Assembly: GCA_964645205.1 (NCBI GenBank)
Contig: CAZYBO010000002.1
Location: forward strand, 182,194 to 246,193
Direction of reading: 5' to 3'
DNA from: an uncultured Rickettsiales bacterium
Lineage (GTDB): Bacteria > Pseudomonadota > Alphaproteobacteria > Rickettsiales > SXRF01
DNA length: 64,000 nt
Within the stretch, counting starts at the first letter, position 1. Every line of letters starts with the position of its first letter. The notes beneath the pieces are model-generated. The model was not told the origin of the DNA, searched no databases, and saw only the letters and a list, made by a program, of their open reading frames with translations. Made by a program: the position numbers and the translations under genes. Shown here in pieces: positions 4,385 through 41,601 of this stretch.

Positions 4385-5269
4385 TTATCTGGATGCGTTT
4401 TCGCCCTTGCCGAACAGTTTTAGGAAATCGTTATCGGGCGAGAGCACCAAAGAGGTGTCTTTTTGCGAAAGGGTTTTGCGATAAGCCTGCATGGTGCGGT
4501 AGAACTGGAAGAATTCCTCATCCTGCCCGAACGAGTCGGCGAATATTTTGGTTGCCTTGCCTTCGCCTTCGCCGCGCAATGTTTCGGCGGTCTTGCGCGC
4601 TTCGGCGAGCAGGATCGTGCGTTCTTTATCCGCCTGCGAGCGGATTTTCTGCGCGTCCTCGGCACCTTTGGCGCGGAATTCCTTGGCTTCGCGTTCGCGT
4701 TCGGTCTGCATCCGCTTGTAGATACCTTCCGAGTTGGCAGGCGGCAGATCGGCGCGCTTGATGCGCACGTCGACTACTTCAATGCCGAAGCCGCCCGTGT
4801 CTTTGCCCATCGCCTGCTCGTTGACCAGCGTGCGGATTTTCTGCATCACTTCCGGGCGTTTTTCCGAGATCACTTCCGACAGCGGCACGCTGCCCAGCAC
4901 CTGACGCAGCGACGATTCGAGGATGGAATTGAGGCGCGAGCGCATGGTGCTTTCGTTAGCTACCGACTGCTTGAAGCGCAGCGGGTCGGTGATGCGGTAG
5001 CGCACGAACGCGTCCACGATCAGGCGCTTCTGGTCGGAGGCGATGACTTCCTTCGGCTCGGCGTCGAAATCGATCAGGCGCTTGTCGAAAAATTCGACAT
5101 TCTGGAGGAATGGCATTTTGAGTTTGAGGCCGGGCGTTTGTTCGGCGCGCACGGGCTTTCCGAATTGCAGCACCAGCGCCTGCTCGGTTTGCGAAACCAC
5201 GAACAGCGCGTTCGACAGCAGGAAAATACCCGCGATGCCTAGTGTAAAGATCAGTGTGGAACGCTTCAT
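4385..5269 (-). CDS. hflC: protease modulator HflC (SPFH domain)
   Basis: N-terminal TM plus SPFH/band-7 sequence, directly downstream of hflK with a 4-nt overlap. Confidence 0.9.
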   Translation of the reverse strand: MKRSTLIFTLGIAGIFLLSNALFVVSQTEQALVLQFGKPVRAEQTPGLKLKMPFLQNVEFFDKRLIDFDAEPKEVIASDQKRLIVDAFVRYRITDPLRFKQSVANESTMRSRLNSILESSLRQVLGSVPLSEVISEKRPEVMQKIRTLVNEQAMGKDTGGFGIEVVDVRIKRADLPPANSEGIYKRMQTEREREAKEFRAKGAEDAQKIRSQADKERTILLAEARKTAETLRGEGEGKATKIFADSFGQDEEFFQFYRTMQAYRKTLSQKDTSLVLSPDNDFLKLFGKGENASR

Positions 5270-6381
5270 TTCTTTTCCTCCTCAGCCTTGGGTTTCAGGC
5301 CGTTAAGCGGCAGGTAGGGCACGACGCCCGAGTTGCTCTTGCCGTCGATAATCACCTTGTTCATGCCCTGCAGGATTTCTTCCATCGTTTCCAGATAGAT
5401 GCGTTTCTTGGTGATGTCGCGAGCCTGCTTGAATTCGTTATACACCGATGTAAAGCGCGCCGCCTCGCCCTGCGCGCGGGCGATGACTTCCTGCTTGTAG
5501 CCCTCGGCTTCGAGCACCATCTGCTGCGCCTGGCCGCGCGCTTTGGGCAGGATGTCGTTGCGGTAGGCTTCGGCCTGGTTGCGTGCGGTTTCTAAGTCGG
5601 CGCGCGCGGTTTGCACGTCGCGGAACGAATCGATCGCTTGCGCCGGTGGGTCGGCTTTCAGCAGGTTGACGCTTACGATTTCAATGCCCGCCTTGTAATG
5701 GTCGAGCGTATCCTGAAGCAGCTTTTTCGTATTCTGCTCCACCTGCAATTTCCCTTCCGCCAGCACGGTGGCGATATTGGTCTTGCCGATGATTTCGCGC
5801 ATGGCGCTCTCGGATACGGCTTTCACCGTTTCTTCCGGGTTGCGCACGTTAAACAGGAAATCCGGCGCGCTGCTGATTTTCCACTGCACTTCAAAGGTCA
5901 CGTCCACGATGTTTTCGTCGCCGGTGAGCATCAGCCCTTCTTGCGCGGTCGGGGTGTCGCCCTTGGCACGGCCGGAACCCGAATAGTAGCCGATCTCGAC
6001 GCGGTTGACGGCGGTGACCTTAGGCGTGGCCGCCGATTCGATCGGGTAGGGTAGGTGGTAGTTCATGCCGGAAGCGGTGGTGCGGTTATAGGCGCCGAAG
6101 CGCAGCACCACGCCTTGCTCGTCGGCCTTCACGAAATAAATGCCCGACGACAGCCACAGCACAACACCCACGGCCACCACCAGCAATATTCCTTTTTTGC
6201 CGTCATTATCTCCGCCTTTGAACATGCGGTTGAGCGTGTCCTGGCCGCGCTTGACCCATTCGTCGAGGTCGGGCGGCTGCGGGGCATTGTTGCCTCCGCC
6301 GGAATTACCTCCACCGGACGGTTTCCCCCACGGACCCTGATTGTCTCCGCCTTGCCAGCCGCCTTTATCGCCCCATGCCAT
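5266..6381 (-). CDS. hflK: protease modulator HflK (SPFH domain)
   Basis: Gly-rich N-terminus (GGWQGGDNQGPWGKPSGGGNSGGGNN), a TM helix and an SPFH domain; the hflK-hflC-htrA order is conserved. Confidence 0.9.
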   Translation of the reverse strand: MAWGDKGGWQGGDNQGPWGKPSGGGNSGGGNNAPQPPDLDEWVKRGQDTLNRMFKGGDNDGKKGILLVVAVGVVLWLSSGIYFVKADEQGVVLRFGAYNRTTASGMNYHLPYPIESAATPKVTAVNRVEIGYYSGSGRAKGDTPTAQEGLMLTGDENIVDVTFEVQWKISSAPDFLFNVRNPEETVKAVSESAMREIIGKTNIATVLAEGKLQVEQNTKKLLQDTLDHYKAGIEIVSVNLLKADPPAQAIDSFRDVQTARADLETARNQAEAYRNDILPKARGQAQQMVLEAEGYKQEVIARAQGEAARFTSVYNEFKQARDITKKRIYLETMEEILQGMNKVIIDGKSNSGVVPYLPLNGLKPKAEEEKK

Positions 6382-6447
6382 AATCTACCCTTCGCGTTTG
6401 TCTGAATGTGCATTATATAGGGGCAGAGTATGGGAGATTGCAAGTAG

Positions 6448-7446
6448 ATGTCATTGGCAAAAGAACAGGTGATCGCCGCCCTGCGGACGGTAGGCGACCC
6501 CGATAGCGGGCGGGACGTGGTCGAAACCGGGCTGGTTTCGGGGATCGCCGTGAAGGACGGCAAGGTCGGCTTCATGCTGTCCATAGACCCGAAGGATAAA
6601 GGGCGCATGGAAAGGTTGCGCGCAGCATGCGAAGCGACGGTGGCTGCGCTTCCCGGCGTTACAGGCGTTACGGCGGTGTTGACTGCGCATGCGGATCAAC
6701 CCGCGGCGCAGCCGGAAGCGCGCAAGCCCGCCCAGTGGAACACTACCCCGCTTGAGTATGTAGGAAAAATCATCGCCGTGGCATCCGGCAAGGGCGGCGT
6801 CGGAAAATCCACCACTGCCGTCAACCTCGCGCTCGCCCTGCAGCGCATGGGCAAATCCGCCGGGTTGCTGGATGCGGATATTTACGGCCCTTCCGTCCCG
6901 CGCATGATGGGGCTCTCCGGCCAGCCGAACATCGCGGATGGGAAAATGGTGCCGCTGGAAAATCACGGTGTGCGCTGCATGTCGATGGGCTTCATCACCG
7001 GCGACGAGGCCGCCATTATGCGCGGCCCCATGATTAGCAAATCATTACAACAATTGTTGCGCGCCACGCGCTGGGGCACTGCGCAATCCCCGCTCGATAC
7101 GCTCTTCGTAGACATGCCGCCCGGCACCGGCGACATCCATCTTTCCATGGCGCAGCAGGTGCCGCTGTCGGGCGCGATCATCGTCACCACCCCGCAGGAA
7201 GTAGCCCTGCTCGACGCGCGCAAATGCCTCATCATGTTCCAGAAAGTGAACGTGCCGGTGCTCGGCGTCGTCGAAAACATGAGCGGCTCCATCTTCGGCG
7301 CCGGCGGCGGCAAAAAACTTGCGGATGAATTTGGTGTGCCGTTGTTAGGCACGGTGGCGATGGACGCGGCGATTTGTGCGGCGGGCGATGCGGGGGTTGG
7401 GTATGCGGCGGAGGTGTATGATAAGATAGCGCGTGTTCTAATCTAG
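6448..7446 (+). CDS. apbC: Fe-S cluster carrier ATPase Mrp/ApbC
   Basis: N-terminal DUF59-like region, then a deviant Walker A motif ASGKGGVGKST. Confidence 0.85.
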   Translation: MSLAKEQVIAALRTVGDPDSGRDVVETGLVSGIAVKDGKVGFMLSIDPKDKGRMERLRAACEATVAALPGVTGVTAVLTAHADQPAAQPEARKPAQWNTTPLEYVGKIIAVASGKGGVGKSTTAVNLALALQRMGKSAGLLDADIYGPSVPRMMGLSGQPNIADGKMVPLENHGVRCMSMGFITGDEAAIMRGPMISKSLQQLLRATRWGTAQSPLDTLFVDMPPGTGDIHLSMAQQVPLSGAIIVTTPQEVALLDARKCLIMFQKVNVPVLGVVENMSGSIFGAGGGKKLADEFGVPLLGTVAMDAAICAAGDAGVGYAAEVYDKIARVLI

Positions 7447-7534
7447 CTTGTCATGCCAGCGTAGGCTGGCATCCACGTTTATCAACTTCCGGCAACGCGT
7501 AAGGTGTGGATCCCGGCCTTCGCCGGGATGACGG

Positions 7535-8590
7535 TTACAACGTCCCCCGCCTAACCTGATCTTCCTCCATCGACTCGAACAGCGCTTTGAAATTCCCCTC
7601 GCCGAAGCCTTCGTCGCCTTTGCGTTGGATGATTTCAAAGAAGATGGGGCCGATGACGGTGGCGGTAAAGATTTGCAGCAGGATGCCGCCATTTTCGGTC
7701 GGCGCCCCATCCATCAATATCCCTAGTTTTTTGAGCTGGGCGATGCTTTCGCCGTGGCGGGGCAGGCGCGTGTCGAGCTTGTCGTAGTAGGTCGCAGGCG
7801 GCGGTTCCATGAAACGTATGCCGCGCGATTTGAGGTTCTCTACGCTTGCATAAATATCCTCGGTGGACAGCGCGATATGCTGGATGCCTTCGCCCTTATA
7901 CTCGCGCAGATATTCCTCGATCTGCGATTTGTCGTCGGCGGATTCGTTGATGGGGATGCGGATTTTCCCGCACGGGCTGGTCATCGCCTTGCTTTTCAGG
8001 CCGGTGAGCTTGCCTTCAATGTCGAAATAGCGGATTTCGCGGAAGTTGAACACGCGCTGGTAAAACCCCGCCCATTCGTCCATGTGCCCGCGATAGACGT
8101 TGTGCGTCAGGTGATCGATAGCGGCAAGCCCGCAACCCGTCGGGCGCTGGTCAACGCCGGGAAGGGGGATGAAATCCACGTCGTAAATCGAATGTTCGCC
8201 GTAGCGATCCACCAGATAGAGCAAACTGCCGCCGATGCCGCGAATCGCGGGAATGTGCAGTTCCATCGCGCCGACTTTCGATTCCACCACTTCCAGCCCG
8301 AGTTCTTTCGCGCGCTTGATAGCGGCGGAGATGTTCTTCACGCGAAACGCCATGGCGTTGGCCGATGCGCCGTGCGCGCTGTAGAAACCCTCGGCGTGGC
8401 TTTCGCGTTCGGCGTTGAGGATGAAATTAATGTCGCCCTGCCGCCAGAGCTGCACGTTTTTCGAGCGGTGATGCGCCACGCGCGAAAATCCCATCTGTGC
8501 GAACAGCGCTTCCAGCGGCGCCGGATCGAGCGCGGCGTATTCGATGAACTCGAATCCGTCCGTGCCCATGGGGTTGGTGGTGTCGCTCAT
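7535..8590 (-). CDS. hppD: 4-hydroxyphenylpyruvate dioxygenase
   Basis: Internal start [18 protein letters not shown] in ORF 7535..8728; the C-terminus [20 protein letters not shown] is typical of HPPD. Its start abuts the stop of the upstream GNAT gene. Confidence 0.9.
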
Positions 8591-9024
8591 GCCAGATCCT
8601 TGGTGAAGTGATAGCCATATATGACATAGCCTTCGCGGAAATAAAAGCGGTGCGAGGGGTAATTGTAGGTATAGCTGTCGAGCACGGCGATGGCGCATTT
8701 TTGCCGCTTGCCTTCTTTTTCCACCCACGCGACGAGTTGTTTGCCCACGCCTTTGCTGCGGACATTTTTATCGACGACGAGATTGTCGATGTCGATATAT
8801 TTGCCGCACCAGAAGCGCCAGCCGATCCAGAATCCCACCAGCCCGACCATCGCATCGTCTGCGTACGCTGCGGCGCAGCGATAGCCTTTTTCGCGCATGG
8901 CGGCGAGCGTTTCGGTAAATTCCTTGCGCGTCATTTTGGGGTTGGCCTGCTTGACGAGGCGGTACATGGAAAGCCATTCGGCGTTGGAGGTCAGTTCACG
9001 GATGAGGAGGGATTTCGAGCGCAT
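8587..9024 (-). CDS. GNAT family N-acetyltransferase
   Basis: 145 aa with the acetyl-CoA-binding-like stretch [16 protein letters not shown]; overlaps the hppD start. Confidence 0.75.
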
Positions 9025-9058
9025 GGATTTTCTATTATGGATAGGTTACAATGGGGAC

Positions 9059-9901
9059 ATGATGCGAGCAGATGTCCACCCACCCGGCATGCGTGCCGAT
9101 TATACGTTCGATTTCGACCCGGCGCAATACACGGATGCGGATCACGCGCTCTGGCACACGCTCTGCGAGCGTCAGAAGCCGTTGCTGAAGGGGCGCGCCT
9201 GCCGCGAATATCTTGAGGCGATCGACCATCTTGGCGTGTTGACGCAGGGCGGAATTCCTGATTGGCGGCGCATCTCCGACCTTCTGGAGAAGGCCACGGG
9301 CTGGCAGCTGGTGGTGGTTCCCGGCCTCGTTCCGGGGGAAATTTTCCTCACCCACCTGTCCAAGCGCCAGTTCCCGGTGACGTGGTGGATTCGCGAGGAA
9401 GCCAAGATCGATTACCTGCAAGAGCCTGATATATTTCATGATTTATTCGGCCATGTGCCGCTGCTGGCCAATCCGGTATTCGCCGATTATTTGCAGCAGT
9501 TCGGGCGCGGGGCGGTCAAAGCCGAGGGGTTAGGGGCGGGCGATCTTCTCGGGCGGCTCTACTGGTTCACGGTGGAATTCGGCCTTATCAACACCGACGA
9601 AGGCTTGCGGATTTACGGCTCAGGCATCGTGTCCTCGGCGAAGGAATCCATCTACGCGCTGGAAAGCCCAAAACCCAACCGCATCGGTTTCGACCTCATG
9701 CGCATGATGCGCAGCGACTACCGTATCGACGATGTGCAGAAAACCTATTTCGTGATCGACAGTTTCGAGCAGCTATTTGAAGAAACCCGTCCCGACTTCA
9801 CCGATTACTACGCAAAACTGAAGGGGCTGCCGCTTATTCCCGAAGGTGCGATTATCGCGACAGACCGCGTGCTTCACCGAGGAGTCCATACTTCCCTCTA
9901 G
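9059..9901 (+). CDS. phhA: phenylalanine-4-hydroxylase
   Basis: PDIFHDLFGHVPLL iron-binding motif and YWFTVEFGL. The start was chosen downstream of the divergent GNAT start (MMRADVHPPG); 9062 is equally possible. Confidence 0.85.
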   Translation: MMRADVHPPGMRADYTFDFDPAQYTDADHALWHTLCERQKPLLKGRACREYLEAIDHLGVLTQGGIPDWRRISDLLEKATGWQLVVVPGLVPGEIFLTHLSKRQFPVTWWIREEAKIDYLQEPDIFHDLFGHVPLLANPVFADYLQQFGRGAVKAEGLGAGDLLGRLYWFTVEFGLINTDEGLRIYGSGIVSSAKESIYALESPKPNRIGFDLMRMMRSDYRIDDVQKTYFVIDSFEQLFEETRPDFTDYYAKLKGLPLIPEGAIIATDRVLHRGVHTSL

Positions 9902-18644: not shown

Positions 18645-19607
18645 TGCGCTCAGATCGCAATGGTTGATGCGCGCGCTTGCCTGCGCCTGCACCACCGGCT
18701 TCGCGTGGTAAGCCACGCCTAAACCCGCTTCCAACAACATCGGCAAGTCGTTGGCACCGTCGCCGACAGCGATCACGTTTTGGGTGGAAATACCCAAATT
18801 TTTGCACGTATCCTTAAGCGTTTGCAGCTTGGCTTCCTTGCCTAAAATGGGCGGGATGACGCGGCCGGTGAGCATGCCGTTTTCGACTTCCAGCCGGTTG
18901 GAGAAATCTTCGTGGAAGCCTAATACATCGCGCACGCGGGAGGTAAAAAACGTGAACCCACCGGAAACCAGTACCGTGTATCCACCTTGTTTGCGCATCG
19001 CGGCAATCAACTCTTTCGCGCCCGGCATCATTTTTACGCGCTCGTCATAGCATTGCTGCAGCGTGGATTCGCTCAGGCCTTTGAGCAGGGCGACACGCTC
19101 GCAAAGCGCTTGTGCAAAATCTAATTCGCCGTTCATCGCGCGCTCGGTGATGCGTGCCACTTCCGCTTTCTTACCCACGAAATCGGCCATTTCGTCGATA
19201 CATTCCACGGTAATCATGGTGGAGTCCATATCGCTGATCAGGAGCTTTTTGCCATGATGTGGAGCCGCTTGTACGATGGCGTCTATGGACTGAGAACCAA
19301 TAATTTCTTGTACGATAGCATCAATAATCTCCCTCTCCCTTTCAGGGAGAGGGTTGGGGTGAGGGTTCTCTCCGCCTACTCTATCTACGTTTGTATTCGC
19401 TGAACCAACCCTCACCCTGCCCTCTCCCTGAAAGGGAGAGGGGGATTCTATTTGCAGCTCGCACGCCACCTGCGGCTTGAGCCATTTAACGCTTGCCACC
19501 GCTATGGCTTGCATGGCAAGCAGGCGCGACATAGACTCGACCGCAGCCTCGCTAAGCGGCTGCTTTTTCGGATCGGCAATCAGCGTAATGACAAAATCGG
19601 AACCCAT
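18627..19607 (-). CDS. serB: phosphoserine phosphatase SerB (with an in-frame palindromic-element insertion)
   Basis: HAD motifs [17 protein letters not shown] and [10 protein letters not shown]. The start [13 protein letters not shown] was chosen inside ORF 18627..19904; it overlaps the divergent miaA start by 20 nt. Confidence 0.8.
19329..19446. repeat. ~115-bp imperfect palindromic element (REP/RPE-like) inside the serB coding frame
   Basis: CCCTCTCCCTttcAGGGAGAGGG+TTGGGGTGAGGGTT ... AACCCTCACCCTG+CCCTCTCCCTgaaAGGGAGAGGG. The two arms are reverse complements of each other, and each arm contains its own hairpin. Confidence 0.6.
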
Positions 19608-20502
19608 AAAACCTATCGTAATCCTCGCAGGCGCCACCGCCAGCGGAAAATCGGCGTGCGCGCTTTCCATAGCGGAAAAATCGGACGGCGTCATCATCAA
19701 TGCCGATTCGCAGCAGATGTACGCGGAACTGCGCATCCTCACCGCCCGCCCTACGCTGGAAGAAGAAGCGCGCGCGCCGCACCGTTTATATGGGATTTTG
19801 CCCGCGCACGATATTTGCTCGGCTGGAAAATGGCTTAAATACGCAAAGATGGAAATCGACTGGGCGCTGTCCAACGGCCAGATGCCCATCGTCACTGGCG
19901 GCACGGGGCTTTATTTGAAGGCGTTGCTACAGGGGTTGTCCGAAATCCCTGATATCGACCCGCAGGTGCGCGAACAGGCGGTCTCCGATTACGACGCAAT
20001 GGGCAAAGAGGGGTTTTGCGAACGGCTGCGCGCGGTAGACCCGGCGTTTTTCGTGCGGCTTGCCGTCTATGACCGCCAGCGGCTCATCCGCGCTTATGAG
20101 GTATGGCTGGGGACAGGAAAGGCGCTGTCGTGGTGGCAGGATCAGCCGTCGCAACCGGCCTATCCGAGAGAGGCTTTTAGAATTTTTACGATGGATATAG
20201 ATAGGGAAACCCTCTACGCACGCTGCGACGCACGGTTTGCCGCCATGCTGAAGCAGGGGGCGGTAGAAGAGGTGAAAAATTTACTACAATTACAACTAAA
20301 AGACGAATTACCCGCGATGAAGTCCGTAGGCGTGCGGGAAATCCGCCGCATGATCGCAGGAGAGCCGCCGGAGGTCTGCATTAGTGACGCAAAGCAGGCC
20401 ACGCGCAATTTCGCCAAACGCCAATTGACATGGTTTCGCAATCAGTTACAAGAGGCGCTTCCGATTTCCGATGCAGACACGTTGTCAAAAAATCTTCTCT
20501 AA
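19588..20502 (+). CDS. miaA: tRNA dimethylallyltransferase
   Basis: Internal start [23 protein letters not shown] (P-loop), plus ADSQQMY. Confidence 0.9.
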   Translation: MTKSEPIKPIVILAGATASGKSACALSIAEKSDGVIINADSQQMYAELRILTARPTLEEEARAPHRLYGILPAHDICSAGKWLKYAKMEIDWALSNGQMPIVTGGTGLYLKALLQGLSEIPDIDPQVREQAVSDYDAMGKEGFCERLRAVDPAFFVRLAVYDRQRLIRAYEVWLGTGKALSWWQDQPSQPAYPREAFRIFTMDIDRETLYARCDARFAAMLKQGAVEEVKNLLQLQLKDELPAMKSVGVREIRRMIAGEPPEVCISDAKQATRNFAKRQLTWFRNQLQEALPISDADTLSKNLL

Positions 20503-20545
20503 ACCGTCATTATTCTTTTCGCTTCGCCTGCATTACAGTTAATAC

Positions 20546-22768
20546 ATGACAACGCATTCATCGCCCCAAAACGGCACGCACGCCCATGACACACTGATTT
20601 TCCTCAGTTCTTCGACACCGGAGAAGCTGCGCGACTACCAGATGATCTGTGAGGCGAAGAAACTGCCGATCCATTTTCTCGGTGCGCATGAATTGCTCGA
20701 TGCTATTCATTCATCAGAAGAAAATACGAAAACTTACCGCGGCAACGCGCTCGACAAGCTGAAGAACTTAAAACTGGCATTGCAGCTATTGCCTAACGGC
20801 GAAGCGATCATGCAGAAAAAATGCGAACAGTACGGGTTTACGTACAATCCGCAGAATATTTATTTTGCGACGGAAGATAGCGGATCGCATATTCCTAAAG
20901 ACATCTGGGCAAAGGTAGACAAGACCGGTATCCCTCAGAAAGCATTAAACAGTATAGACGAGAAGGGCGGGCATGGGCCCGGCGTAGAGCTTGCGCCCGT
21001 GCTCAGCAGCACGCTTGGCGCGCAGAAACTGATCGAACGGATTTACGACGCGGCGAAGCAGCTTGGATATGAAGGCAAGGATCACGTCCGTATCCTCGAA
21101 AAAGCGGTGCTGACGCTCGACCCTTTCATGACCGGTACGCAACTTCCCACGCTTATCGAAGGCAAGGGTATCAATTACCTGCATGCGCCCGATAAAAAAC
21201 CCCATCCCGGCGAGCGCGTCGGCACCTATCACTATTACCGTCCGAACGCGCATCCGGAAAAGAGTTGTGCGGAACTGGGCGAAGAATTTATCGTCAGCCA
21301 CAGCGCGCGTGCGCATGTGGTGGAAAAGCTGGCGAAGGAAACGCTGAAGATTCCCGATTATGCTCGCAAGGCGTTGCCGCTGCGCCCTGCGCCCATCGAC
21401 GATTTTTCGGTGGGATTGCTGCCGCTCACCAAAGACGCCGTGCCGCACGCCGCCATCGACGCCCTGCTCCGCCGCAGCAACGGCGCGGGTAAGCATTTCA
21501 AGGTGCGTTATCCTGAGCATGACGACTCCCCGCAGAACCGCACGTCGCGTAACTTTCTGAGCGCGGTCGACGACATCGTGCGCCATAGCGACGGGTTTAT
21601 CCTGCTGCCTGACAGCGAGCGCAAGGACACGCCGGATTCCAAATTCGAGAAATTCTACACGCTGTTTTCCCTGATGGTGGCCAAGCAGCTTGTTGCGCGC
21701 GACATGCAGAAACCTATCGTCATTTTAAATCATGACGGAAGCTGGAACGAGGCGATCGCCAACCACATGGATCTGGTGAATCTCGGCATGACCAAGGATC
21801 ACAGCATTATCGTGCACGACACTCCTGCGGGGCTTCCGCACGGCGTGCGCGTCCGCTCCAACAGCTATTTCGACGAAGTGCGCGCCGACAGCTATGACGA
21901 TGCGCTCAAGGCCGGGCTGCAGGTGCTTAATAAGCGCCGAGAACGCTATCAGCGCCGTCCGTATGCGCCGAGTGTGGAATATGAGCTGGGCGTAAAGCCC
22001 GATCCGAAGCAGTTCAAAGTGGCGATTTTCTGTTCCGCCGCCAATGAGAACGAACATCTCAACCAACAGATGGAGCGCTTAAGTTACGGGTTGTCCTCCG
22101 AAGGGTACGGCATCGTTTACGGTGCGGGTGACCGCTATACGATGGGCGCGGTGCTCAGCGGCGTTGCCAAGAACCGTAGCAGCCTTGAAATGATGAGTAT
22201 GCCCGCCGATGAATTGCATAAGAGAGCATGGATAGGCGGTTACAGCACCGAGCCGATTTTAAAATCGGAGACGGACAGGGGCACGCCTTCGCCGCTGCTC
22301 AGCTATTTTAAGCAGACCCGCAATATCTACGACCGCATGGCCGACATGCTCGATACTTGCAACGCCTTGGTCGTCGCCCCCGGCGGCGCGGGCACGGTGC
22401 AGGAATGGGTGGGGGCGCTCATGCTCAAGAAAACCGCGCCGGAATTATTTAAGAATAAACCCATAGTGATATTCAACCCGCCGTTGAACAACGAAAAAGT
22501 AAAAGTATGGGATTCCACGCTTAAAGCCCTGCTCGGCAAGGATTACGACCTGCTTACCAAAGACAAGGATAAGCTGACCACTGCGGAAGCCGAACGGCGC
22601 GAGGATCGTTGCCGTAAGCTAGGGGTTTACGTGGAAACCGACGTTCCATCGGTGGAGATGCGCATTCAGGGCTTCGCCCGGCAGTACACAACCCGTATCC
22701 AGCCTCGCTCCAGTACATGGACTGCGGATCGCAACGTCGGCAACTCGCAGGGCTATTTAGGGCTTTAA
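20546..22768 (+). CDS. 740-aa multidomain protein: N-terminal HAM1/RdgB (ITPase)-like region, a degenerate central LOG-like region, and a C-terminal LOG (TIGR00730-like) domain
   Basis: N-terminus TLIFLSSSTPEKLRDY...SEENTKTYRGNALDKL...YFATEDSGSHI...SHSARAHVVEKL parallels ITPase motifs. C-terminus VAIFCSAANEN...GYGIVYGAGDRYTMGAV...ALVVAPGGAGTVQEW...KPIVIFN parallels LOG motifs (GGGxxGxMG, PGGxGTxxE). Central GFILLPDSE...KPIVILNHDGSWN resembles the second half of a LOG fold. Confidence 0.6.
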   Translation: MTTHSSPQNGTHAHDTLIFLSSSTPEKLRDYQMICEAKKLPIHFLGAHELLDAIHSSEENTKTYRGNALDKLKNLKLALQLLPNGEAIMQKKCEQYGFTYNPQNIYFATEDSGSHIPKDIWAKVDKTGIPQKALNSIDEKGGHGPGVELAPVLSSTLGAQKLIERIYDAAKQLGYEGKDHVRILEKAVLTLDPFMTGTQLPTLIEGKGINYLHAPDKKPHPGERVGTYHYYRPNAHPEKSCAELGEEFIVSHSARAHVVEKLAKETLKIPDYARKALPLRPAPIDDFSVGLLPLTKDAVPHAAIDALLRRSNGAGKHFKVRYPEHDDSPQNRTSRNFLSAVDDIVRHSDGFILLPDSERKDTPDSKFEKFYTLFSLMVAKQLVARDMQKPIVILNHDGSWNEAIANHMDLVNLGMTKDHSIIVHDTPAGLPHGVRVRSNSYFDEVRADSYDDALKAGLQVLNKRRERYQRRPYAPSVEYELGVKPDPKQFKVAIFCSAANENEHLNQQMERLSYGLSSEGYGIVYGAGDRYTMGAVLSGVAKNRSSLEMMSMPADELHKRAWIGGYSTEPILKSETDRGTPSPLLSYFKQTRNIYDRMADMLDTCNALVVAPGGAGTVQEWVGALMLKKTAPELFKNKPIVIFNPPLNNEKVKVWDSTLKALLGKDYDLLTKDKDKLTTAEAERREDRCRKLGVYVETDVPSVEMRIQGFARQYTTRIQPRSSTWTADRNVGNSQGYLGL

Positions 22769-41120: not shown

Positions 41121-41535
41121 TGTCGAAAAACCCAACGAAATAAAACAGATACCGGATGAAGGCTTTCGTCAGGAAAAGAAGAAAGCCGCCGGTAATACTG
41201 ACAAGCTTTCCATAGAAGAAGAAGGCGCGATTGCAGACAGAGCGCTTGATCGCATCAAAGATAGTGAGGATGAAAACGTCCTTGCCCTCCACAAAGTCTT
41301 TCGTTGGGGGATCAAATTCCTTTTCGCCATTGCTTGCGTTGCTCTGATATATATTCTGTTCATGATGTGTTACCTGATATGCAGGCACATAGGATATATT
41401 TCTGCAGATCCGGTAAAGCTAGAACAGCTATTAACAAGTGTTTGGCATGTACTTTCTGGCGCGGCAATAATTAGCTTCGTGCAGCTTCTGGGTTGGCTAT
41501 TAAAAGCTCAGCACGATAAATCAAGACGCAAATAA
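41110..41535 (+). CDS. two-TM membrane protein, candidate toxin partner of the Panacea gene
   Basis: The ATG overlaps the last 11 nt of the upstream gene. Acidic N-terminal region, then hydrophobic helices WGIKFLFAIACVALIYILFMMCYLI and VWHVLSGAAIISFVQLLGWLL, then a basic tail. Confidence 0.55.
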   Translation: MPGDVEKPNEIKQIPDEGFRQEKKKAAGNTDKLSIEEEGAIADRALDRIKDSEDENVLALHKVFRWGIKFLFAIACVALIYILFMMCYLICRHIGYISADPVKLEQLLTSVWHVLSGAAIISFVQLLGWLLKAQHDKSRRK

Positions 41536-41575
41536 TCTATTAAAACAAAAGCCACCTACGATTGCCCGTAAACTT

Positions 41576-41601
41576 CTAGGTGTGCTTGCTACATAATACC
41601 G
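41576..41601. repeat. right terminal inverted repeat
   Basis: CTAGGTGTGCTTGCTACATAATACCG. Confidence 0.8.

Follow-up and report, generated by a model that had tools for sequence, protein, structure and literature searches.

The serB gene in the 64,000-nucleotide stretch of contig CAZYBO010000002.1 analysed here (hereafter the window), from an uncultured Rickettsiales bacterium, carries an imperfect palindrome in frame within its coding sequence. Its sequence identifies this element as an inverted pair of triplex motifs from the known BoxC/PIT/TMECO repeat family. It is probably a passenger that is tolerated and translated as a loop of SerB and that has no dedicated function in the protein. 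A previous sequence-only reading of the same DNA had noticed a palindrome of ~115 bp at this position, had compared it with REP-type repeats and with Rickettsia palindromic elements (RPE), and had proposed that a mobile repeat was accommodated as a surface loop. The coordinates of the features are collected in Table 1.

Structure and family of the palindrome in serB

The palindrome is real and 122 nt long. Its outer arms (19326-19358 and 19415-19447, 33 nt each) are 91% complementary, and the inner arms GGGTGAGGGTT (19357-19367) and AACCCTCACCC (19407-19417) are 100% complementary. At either end, 10 bp pair perfectly into a hairpin closed by a 3-nt loop, namely CCCTCTCCCT-TTC-AGGGAGAGGG at 19331-19353 and CCCTCTCCCT-GAA-AGGGAGAGGG at 19420-19442, and this hairpin pattern has two matches in the window compared to 0.00 expected from 100 shuffles. 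The RNA folding energy of the palindrome is -82.7 kcal/mol, compared to -41.1 +/- 4.1 kcal/mol for shuffled sequences (z = -10.3).

Four contigs, each assembled from a separate sequencing run, match positions 18012-22697 of the window at 100% identity, so the insert in serB is no assembly artefact. These four contigs evidently represent one strain, and they thus exclude an artefact only and are silent on variation in the population. The presence of a single copy in the window might suggest a chance palindrome, one native to serB or an error of assembly, but this explanation is already refuted by the shuffle controls, by the agreement of the four read sets, by the thousands of nearly identical copies that other genomes contain and by the lack of the segment in orthologues (both described below); the probability that we leave to it is negligible.

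Table 1. Positions of the serB element, its parts and the genes around it in the window
Feature	Positions	Strand	Basis or remark
serB coding sequence	18627..19607	-	Open reading frame (ORF), 326 codons plus stop; catalytic DxDST from residue 126
Inserted peptide, SerB codons 55-93 (SPSPF...ERERE)	19329..19445	-	Alignment and AlphaFold2
Entire imperfect palindrome of 122 nt with its AATC/GATT outer pairs	19326..19447	.	Inverted-repeat and folding analysis
Arm 1, BoxC/TMECO, CCCTCTCCC-TTTCA-GGGAGAGGG-TTG-GGGTGAGGG	19331..19365	+	Exact published pattern
Centre, 43 nt	19366..19408	.	49% G+C over 19368-19406; sequence unlike other copies of the family
Arm 2, CCCTCTCCC-TTTCA-GGGAGAGGG-CA-GGGTGAGGG	19409..19442	-	Second loop of 2 nt, not 3
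miaA	19588..20502	+	Divergent neighbour; PF01715 IPPT; context only

Knowledge of the BoxC/PIT/TMECO family goes back to the 1990s (Holder et al. 2015, PMC4666352), and BoxC was entered as an E. coli family of 56 bp with 32 copies (PMC2267715). The published pattern of the triplex motif reads CCCTCNCCC-N3-6-GGGNGAGGG-N3-GGGNGAGGG, with one mismatched triplet allowed (PMC4666352). The first arm of the serB element fits this pattern with 0 mismatches, and the second one fits save for its shorter second loop. The single strand of the motif forms a triplex in vitro while duplex DNA gives no triplex signal, the motif is unprotected in in vivo footprinting, and local instability is raised where it occurs (PMC4666352).

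The similarity to copies in E. coli points to the same family. A 131-nt region has matches in 4892 of the 5426 complete E. coli genomes, at a median of about 10-11 places in each, and all of the sampled places (40/40) are intergenic. The best-matching place is the one between gldA and yijF (locus L001), where both arms are 89.5% identical to the serB element and the layout is the same: a hairpin, GGGGTGAGGG, the centre, CCCTCACCC and the second hairpin. Taken singly, an arm reaches up to 97.4% identity (38/39 nt) with E. coli copies. In K-12, a copy upstream of fabI fits the published pattern, instead of one downstream of this gene, where none was found. Together, the pattern and the E. coli similarity assign the element to BoxC/PIT/TMECO and not to the REP-type repeats that had been suggested.

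For strain MG1655, 23 copies of the triplex motif have been reported, all intergenic and five as inverted pairs, and 3610 copies were counted across 262 proteobacterial genomes (PMC4666352). A BoxC-like hairpin of K-12 (locus L006, 2890-2920) overlaps the last codons of ycjD (DUF559), which may be a marginal exception to the statement that the K-12 copies are always intergenic.

Our own scans widen the known distribution of the motif. The exact arm of the window was found at 80 loci in species-representative genomes from at least eight phyla, comprising alphaproteobacterial metagenome-assembled genomes (MAGs), Enterobacteriaceae, Planctomycetota, Chloroflexota, Zixibacteria, Acidobacteriota, Rokubacteria, Binatia, a genome of the candidate phyla radiation (CPR) and others, and the core with two G-stems has matches in at least 120 viral contigs. 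Pairs with outward hairpins number 12 in the fetched loci (gldA-yijF and 11 others), and the enterobacterial pairs mostly have their hairpins inward (27 pairs).

Scanning the element against Rfam gave sub-threshold matches only. Their list also holds several microRNA precursor families, and we treated these matches as generic ones to long hairpins. Positions 19331-19442 match RF02818 (V_AS5, a Vibrio 'antisense RNA') over its full length, scoring 35.5 bits where the gathering score is 96; a similar palindromic repeat may underlie this family itself.

The predicted insert in the SerB protein

The serB frame ends with the stop codon 18627-18629 and, according to the ORF list, likely starts at the ATG 19607-19605, giving 326 residues. 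Its product scores 230.5 bits with TIGR00338 in an NCBIfam profile search (cut-off 144), which identifies it as SerB. In an alignment of the query with 27 full-length orthologues, the protein is 60-69% identical to them and its HAD part 73-81%; all invariant columns, with D126 and D128 of the DxDST motif among them, are kept in the query by construction. The 40-residue minus-strand translation given in the sequence-only reading was confirmed, and it follows the frame of the serB ORF. The segment that it covers is absent in 27/27 orthologues, which have 1-2 residues of their own at query positions 55-90. This supports a repeat-family element set in frame into serB, as had been proposed, and the opposite case of a segment conserved among orthologues is found in none of the 27.

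The AlphaFold2 model of SerB has a mean pLDDT (predicted local distance difference test) of 88.3 and a pTM (predicted TM-score) of 0.85, and it superposes on the SerB of Brucella melitensis (7qpl) with TM-scores of 0.79 / 0.86. It shows a strand at residues 48-54, a helix at 87-103, a strand at 108-114 and a HAD core that begins near residue 121, and its N-terminal domain is confidently predicted, with pLDDT values of 86-97. In this model, the insert lies within the N-terminal domain, between the first strand and the helix, and not between that domain and the HAD core where it had been placed. Residues 55-86 have no secondary structure and the pLDDT is below 50 at residues 68-85. The insert is thus predicted to form an unstructured loop within the N-terminal ACT-like domain, consistent with the accommodation as a loop envisaged earlier. 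The modelled helix starts at L87, within the element-coded LPERERE. Without the insert, SerB would be a few residues short compared to the orthologues, which fits a helix starting in LPERERE, and this end of the insert would replace the beginning of the next helix.

The SerB orthologue P0054 (364 aa) carries a different, hydrophobic insertion of ~65 residues in the identical loop, so this loop tolerates insertions.

On the coding strand, arm 1, the centre and arm 2 read as 13, ~13 and 12 residues. The element is stop-free in 2 of its 6 frames, which are the two symmetric ones, and serB uses one of them. Because the other frames hold stops, an insertion in an essential gene would persist only if its phase is stop-free and its length 3n. 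In each arm, a hairpin of 9 bp between C-stem and G-stem precedes a third G-stem. We propose that the two arms, placed around the 43-nt centre, would have entered the part of serB coding for a loop of the N-terminal ACT-like domain, apparently without a transposase. The insert would survive because its length is 3n, because it is placed in the sole stop-free frame of its orientation, and because its peptide, rich in Pro, Gly and charged residues, would form a disordered loop on the surface, distant from the HAD active site. For serB, the effect is likely neutral.

In the DxDxT chemistry of HAD enzymes, an Asp is the nucleophile. The first in-frame ATG 3' of the insert encodes M127, past the nucleophile D126, and a SerB product started downstream would therefore be inactive. 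It follows that the insert must be translated for the enzyme to be active, and we infer that it is. In the public protein collection, serB is called as a protein of 200 aa (18627-19229, start MDSTMI; P0001) that lacks both the nucleophile Asp and the entire N-terminal domain, while a second gene caller calls the full frame (P0121). The 200-aa call is most likely a gene-calling error, and the repeat is perhaps its cause. Taken at face value, this call would rather speak for a damaged serB, in which the N-terminal part is unused or the gene is decaying, another phosphoserine phosphatase is used, and the short protein is nearer the truth; the slight excess of divergence in the N-terminal domain (see below) could be read in the same sense. 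We consider this quite unlikely, since the frame is open across the insert and the entire N-terminal domain, that domain is modelled with confidence, the HAD part is as well conserved as stated above with its invariant columns kept, the full frame is recovered by the other caller, and the product started at M127 would be devoid of Asp126.

A further explanation would leave the element in the gene and keep it out of the protein, by ribosomal bypassing or by removal at the RNA level. The GC-rich 'byp' inserts of yeast mitochondria and T4 gene 60 are parallels for such bypassing, and a compact, highly stable GC-rich hairpin in a coding region resembles what they would call for. It is nevertheless very improbable here, because a skipped element would need neither a length of 3n nor a stop-free frame, and because 19 further copies in long open frames, mostly Pfam-supported, are likewise open and in phase, in a set that was preselected for an open frame.

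In-frame copies in related genomes

A census of genic copies was made on loci from MAG assemblies, selected by an exact match to the window's arm; stop-free frames across the motif were taken from the fetched loci and then scanned with Pfam. In the MAG RE-15aug16-6 ('Rickettsiales bacterium'), 9 of 12 motif sites fall within Pfam-supported genes. Its in-frame hosts are GpmI, CoaBC (in the linker), RibD, TruA, a SpoU methylase, an AIRS-family enzyme, a CN-hydrolase, an RlmI-like PUA-methyltransferase and a MacB periplasmic domain, the latter with weaker support, under the Pfam gathering score. The other three sites interrupt no gene: two lie between ORFs and one is close to the putative N-terminus of a Band_7 protein. 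Compared to the 0/23 genic copies of E. coli K-12, the proportion of 9/12 corresponds to a Fisher exact p of 3e-6, for loci that were preselected by the exact arm.

Similar copies were seen elsewhere. Genic copies of the MAG bins.290 lie in GpmI, the RlmI-like enzyme, CoaBC and the AIRS-family enzyme; the motif occurs in the GltX linker in the MAG SRP278252, in the MutL linker and a MacB domain in Phycisphaerae genomes, and in a portal-MuF protein of a viral contig. The related MAGs each have at least 8-11 contigs with the exact arm. Long open frames over the motif were also obtained in Enterobacteriaceae and several other phyla; they are without Pfam support and were discarded as spurious.

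The peptides encoded by these copies recur. Arms in reverse orientation encode NPHPxPLPERER[G/E] in 10 of 14 cases, in the same phase as in SerB, and the 13-residue arm peptide of SerB is identical to the versions in TruA and MacB. Arms in forward orientation encode PSPFQGEG.. or TLSPxGRGQGEG. Since they recur in other proteins, these peptides are a signature of the translated repeat, as the sequence-only reading had supposed. Its comparison with RPE stands for the behaviour, that is, the in-frame presence in many housekeeping genes of related MAGs, while for the family, the DNA matches BoxC instead.

Between RE-15aug16-6 and bins.290, whose host proteins are ~91-92% identical, the insert sites are partly common and partly different. 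At the GpmI site, one MAG has a BoxC/TMECO pair where the other has a different palindromic repeat, and one extra arm that the RlmI-like gene carries in one MAG is absent from the other. The second palindrome in GpmI of bins.290 (L141 ~5330-5440 vs L160 2459-2572) is unrelated to the first, with the sequence GTCATCCTGAGCGAAGCG...GCTCGGGATGAC and the peptide ..SVILSEALAKSKDPKIPRQARDD..; its peptide motif also occurs upstream of CoaBC in L167 and is absent from the window.

Two features place the source organism. Positions 4388-9898 of the window are syntenic with a contig of RE-15aug16-6, at 62-77% amino-acid identity, and positions 16277-16752 (- strand) encode a two-piece (permuted) alphaproteobacterial tmRNA (transfer-messenger RNA; RF01849, 188 bits). 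The two-piece tmRNA indicates that the organism is alphaproteobacterial and, with the synteny, that it belongs to the same broad group as RE-15aug16-6. The tmRNA tag given by ARAGORN, ANDNQAFVAANDNTVVEVRAAA, is unusually long and contains ANDN twice, and the match spans 453 nt for a model of 355 positions.

On this basis, a clade of uncultured alphaproteobacteria that includes the source organism may be one in which BoxC/TMECO colonises coding regions as RPE do, bringing the same short peptide modules (PSPFQGEG.., TLSPxGRGQGEG, NPHPxPLPERERx) into many essential enzymes, with sites gained and lost between genomes ~8-9% apart in protein. We give this wider proposal an even chance.

The recurrence of one peptide phase in many proteins might also be taken as a sign of function. 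The loop could alter the ACT-like domain in its regulatory or dimerisation role, or the hairpin could tune serB expression, through translation pausing or RNase III cleavage at the mRNA or DNA hairpin, or stop antisense read-through from thyX. The extreme stability of the hairpin, the presence on the + strand of one hairpin followed by GGATTCTATT that resembles a terminator, and the modelling of the element-coded LPERERE in a helix would all agree with such a use. However, terminator-like structures show no excess (4 vs 2.5 +/- 1.5 in shuffles), and the motifs had neither promoter nor terminator activity in published tests (PMC4666352). Moreover, the host genes and sites are functionally unrelated, the insert peptide is modelled as disordered, and the phase preference is accounted for by the stop codons in the other frames. 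A function acquired by the element in serB is thus unlikely.

Several observations weigh against a translated passenger that arrived by insertion. The window contains no further BoxC copy, whether exact or with <=5 mismatches. In a search of 5.8 billion proteins, no SerB closer than ~62% identity was found besides two calls of the same gene, and hence no relative above 62% that would display the empty site; 'insertion' here denotes what the comparison with orthologues suggests. The divergence ratio of the N-terminal domain is 0.58, compared to 0.69 +/- 0.10 for orthologue pairs of equal HAD divergence; this excess of ~1 standard deviation is a weak sign that could reflect relaxed constraint. 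Comparison of filled and empty sites reveals no target duplication at the RlmI-like and GpmI sites. No transposase or integrase, nor remnants of them, lie near TMECO sites (PMC4666352). Finally, the centres of the inverted pairs, 6-98 nt long, are mutually unrelated between loci and offer no conserved core. Because the centres vary, the repeat unit is the 35-nt arm and not a MITE (miniature transposable element with inverted repeats) with a conserved core.

The flanks of the serB element likewise show no direct repeat of the kind expected for a target-site duplication. A 19-nt direct repeat beside the element (IDAIVQ...IDAIVQ) was considered as one and rejected as ancestral coding sequence, the orthologues sharing an LDxxVQ...DAVVQ layout. 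The word 'mobile' in the sequence-only reading thus goes beyond the data, which revealed neither a target-site duplication nor a transposase nor a conserved core. At one locus of an uncultured Planctomycetaceae (L137, 2593-3170), tandem 181-bp units each consist of two paired triplex motifs around a conserved centre of 98 nt, in contrast to the variable centres at other loci.

Neighbouring features, significance and comparison with known systems

At 19588-19607, serB and miaA overlap by ~20 nt at their likely start codons, and thyX converges on the serB stop. Upstream of serB, the antisense frame opposite the P-loop region of miaA is open in the window and in many orthologues, and the over-long gene calls of serB orthologues arise because this frame stays open.

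Elsewhere in the window, 54-nt inverted repeats with 85% complementarity (37994-38047 and 41548-41601) surround 3.5 kb that contain an ORF of 320 aa resembling an IS1595-type transposase (39332-40294, - strand) and a passenger ORF of 150 aa (40668-41120, + strand); positions 37994-41601 are probably an insertion element with cargo. Between 45900 and 63200, several families of long diverged direct repeats (e.g. 60985-61179 / 61204-61398 and 61348-61409 / 62200-62261) fall in apparently very large repetitive genes.

The repeat family itself is already known, as are in-frame repeats such as RPE, BRE and ERIC (PMC10969869, PMC3184786). In the literature, we found no description of BoxC/PIT/TMECO within coding regions or as the habit of a lineage, and a full-text search with the peptide words of the element returned no paper. 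The in-frame copies in essential genes suggest that BoxC/TMECO can be absorbed as protein surface loops, which ties the family to the mode of protein evolution known from RPE. Filled and empty sites in close genomes provide a basis for inferring the mechanism of insertion. Such inserts may also mislead gene callers, as perhaps in the short public call of serB with its missing catalytic Asp. If the clade-wide proposal is true, the Rickettsia phenomenon would have a second, independent example, with a cross-phylum repeat and no known transposase, and the clade would serve as a comparative system for the spread of repeats that have been orphans for 30 years.

Compared to MITEs, the serB element is similar in its terminal inverted repeats, its small size and its lack of coding capacity of its own, but it has no target-site duplication and no conserved internal sequence. 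No parent insertion sequence turned up, although no search was aimed at one. The BRE of Betaproteobacteria, intragenic ERIC and the pneumococcal BOX, RUP and SPRITE repeats are also small repeats that are sometimes internal to genes and in frame (PMC3184786). They differ from the serB element in sequence and structure, and none of them is the triplex motif.

The in-frame habit with a recurring peptide is common to RPE and to the element described here, which is found in SerB and, elsewhere, in GpmI, CoaBC, RibD, TruA, GltX, MutL and other proteins. Rickettsia palindromic elements, reportedly described by Ogata et al. in 2000, are limited to Rickettsia and AT-rich. They are palindromic and lie in frame in unrelated housekeeping genes, with a conserved peptide and with the host fold kept (PMC10969869, PMC3184786). 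While RPE have ~105-150 bp with a family-specific core, the serB element consists of two 35-nt GC-rich modules around a variable centre and belongs to a cross-phylum repeat. The insert has no match at E <= 1 in NCBIfam and Pfam, libraries in which the presence of RPE models is unconfirmed.

The closest system remains BoxC/PIT/TMECO. The serB element has the three-stem pattern and a near-identical sequence, and it is an inverted pair, like five in K-12; it is also GC-rich, has no associated mobility gene and belongs to a widely distributed, highly conserved family. It differs in the 2-nt second loop of arm 2, instead of 3 nt, and in its outward hairpins, where enterobacterial pairs mostly have them inward. 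Above all, whereas the K-12 copies are reported as intergenic, the serB element lies in frame in an essential gene.

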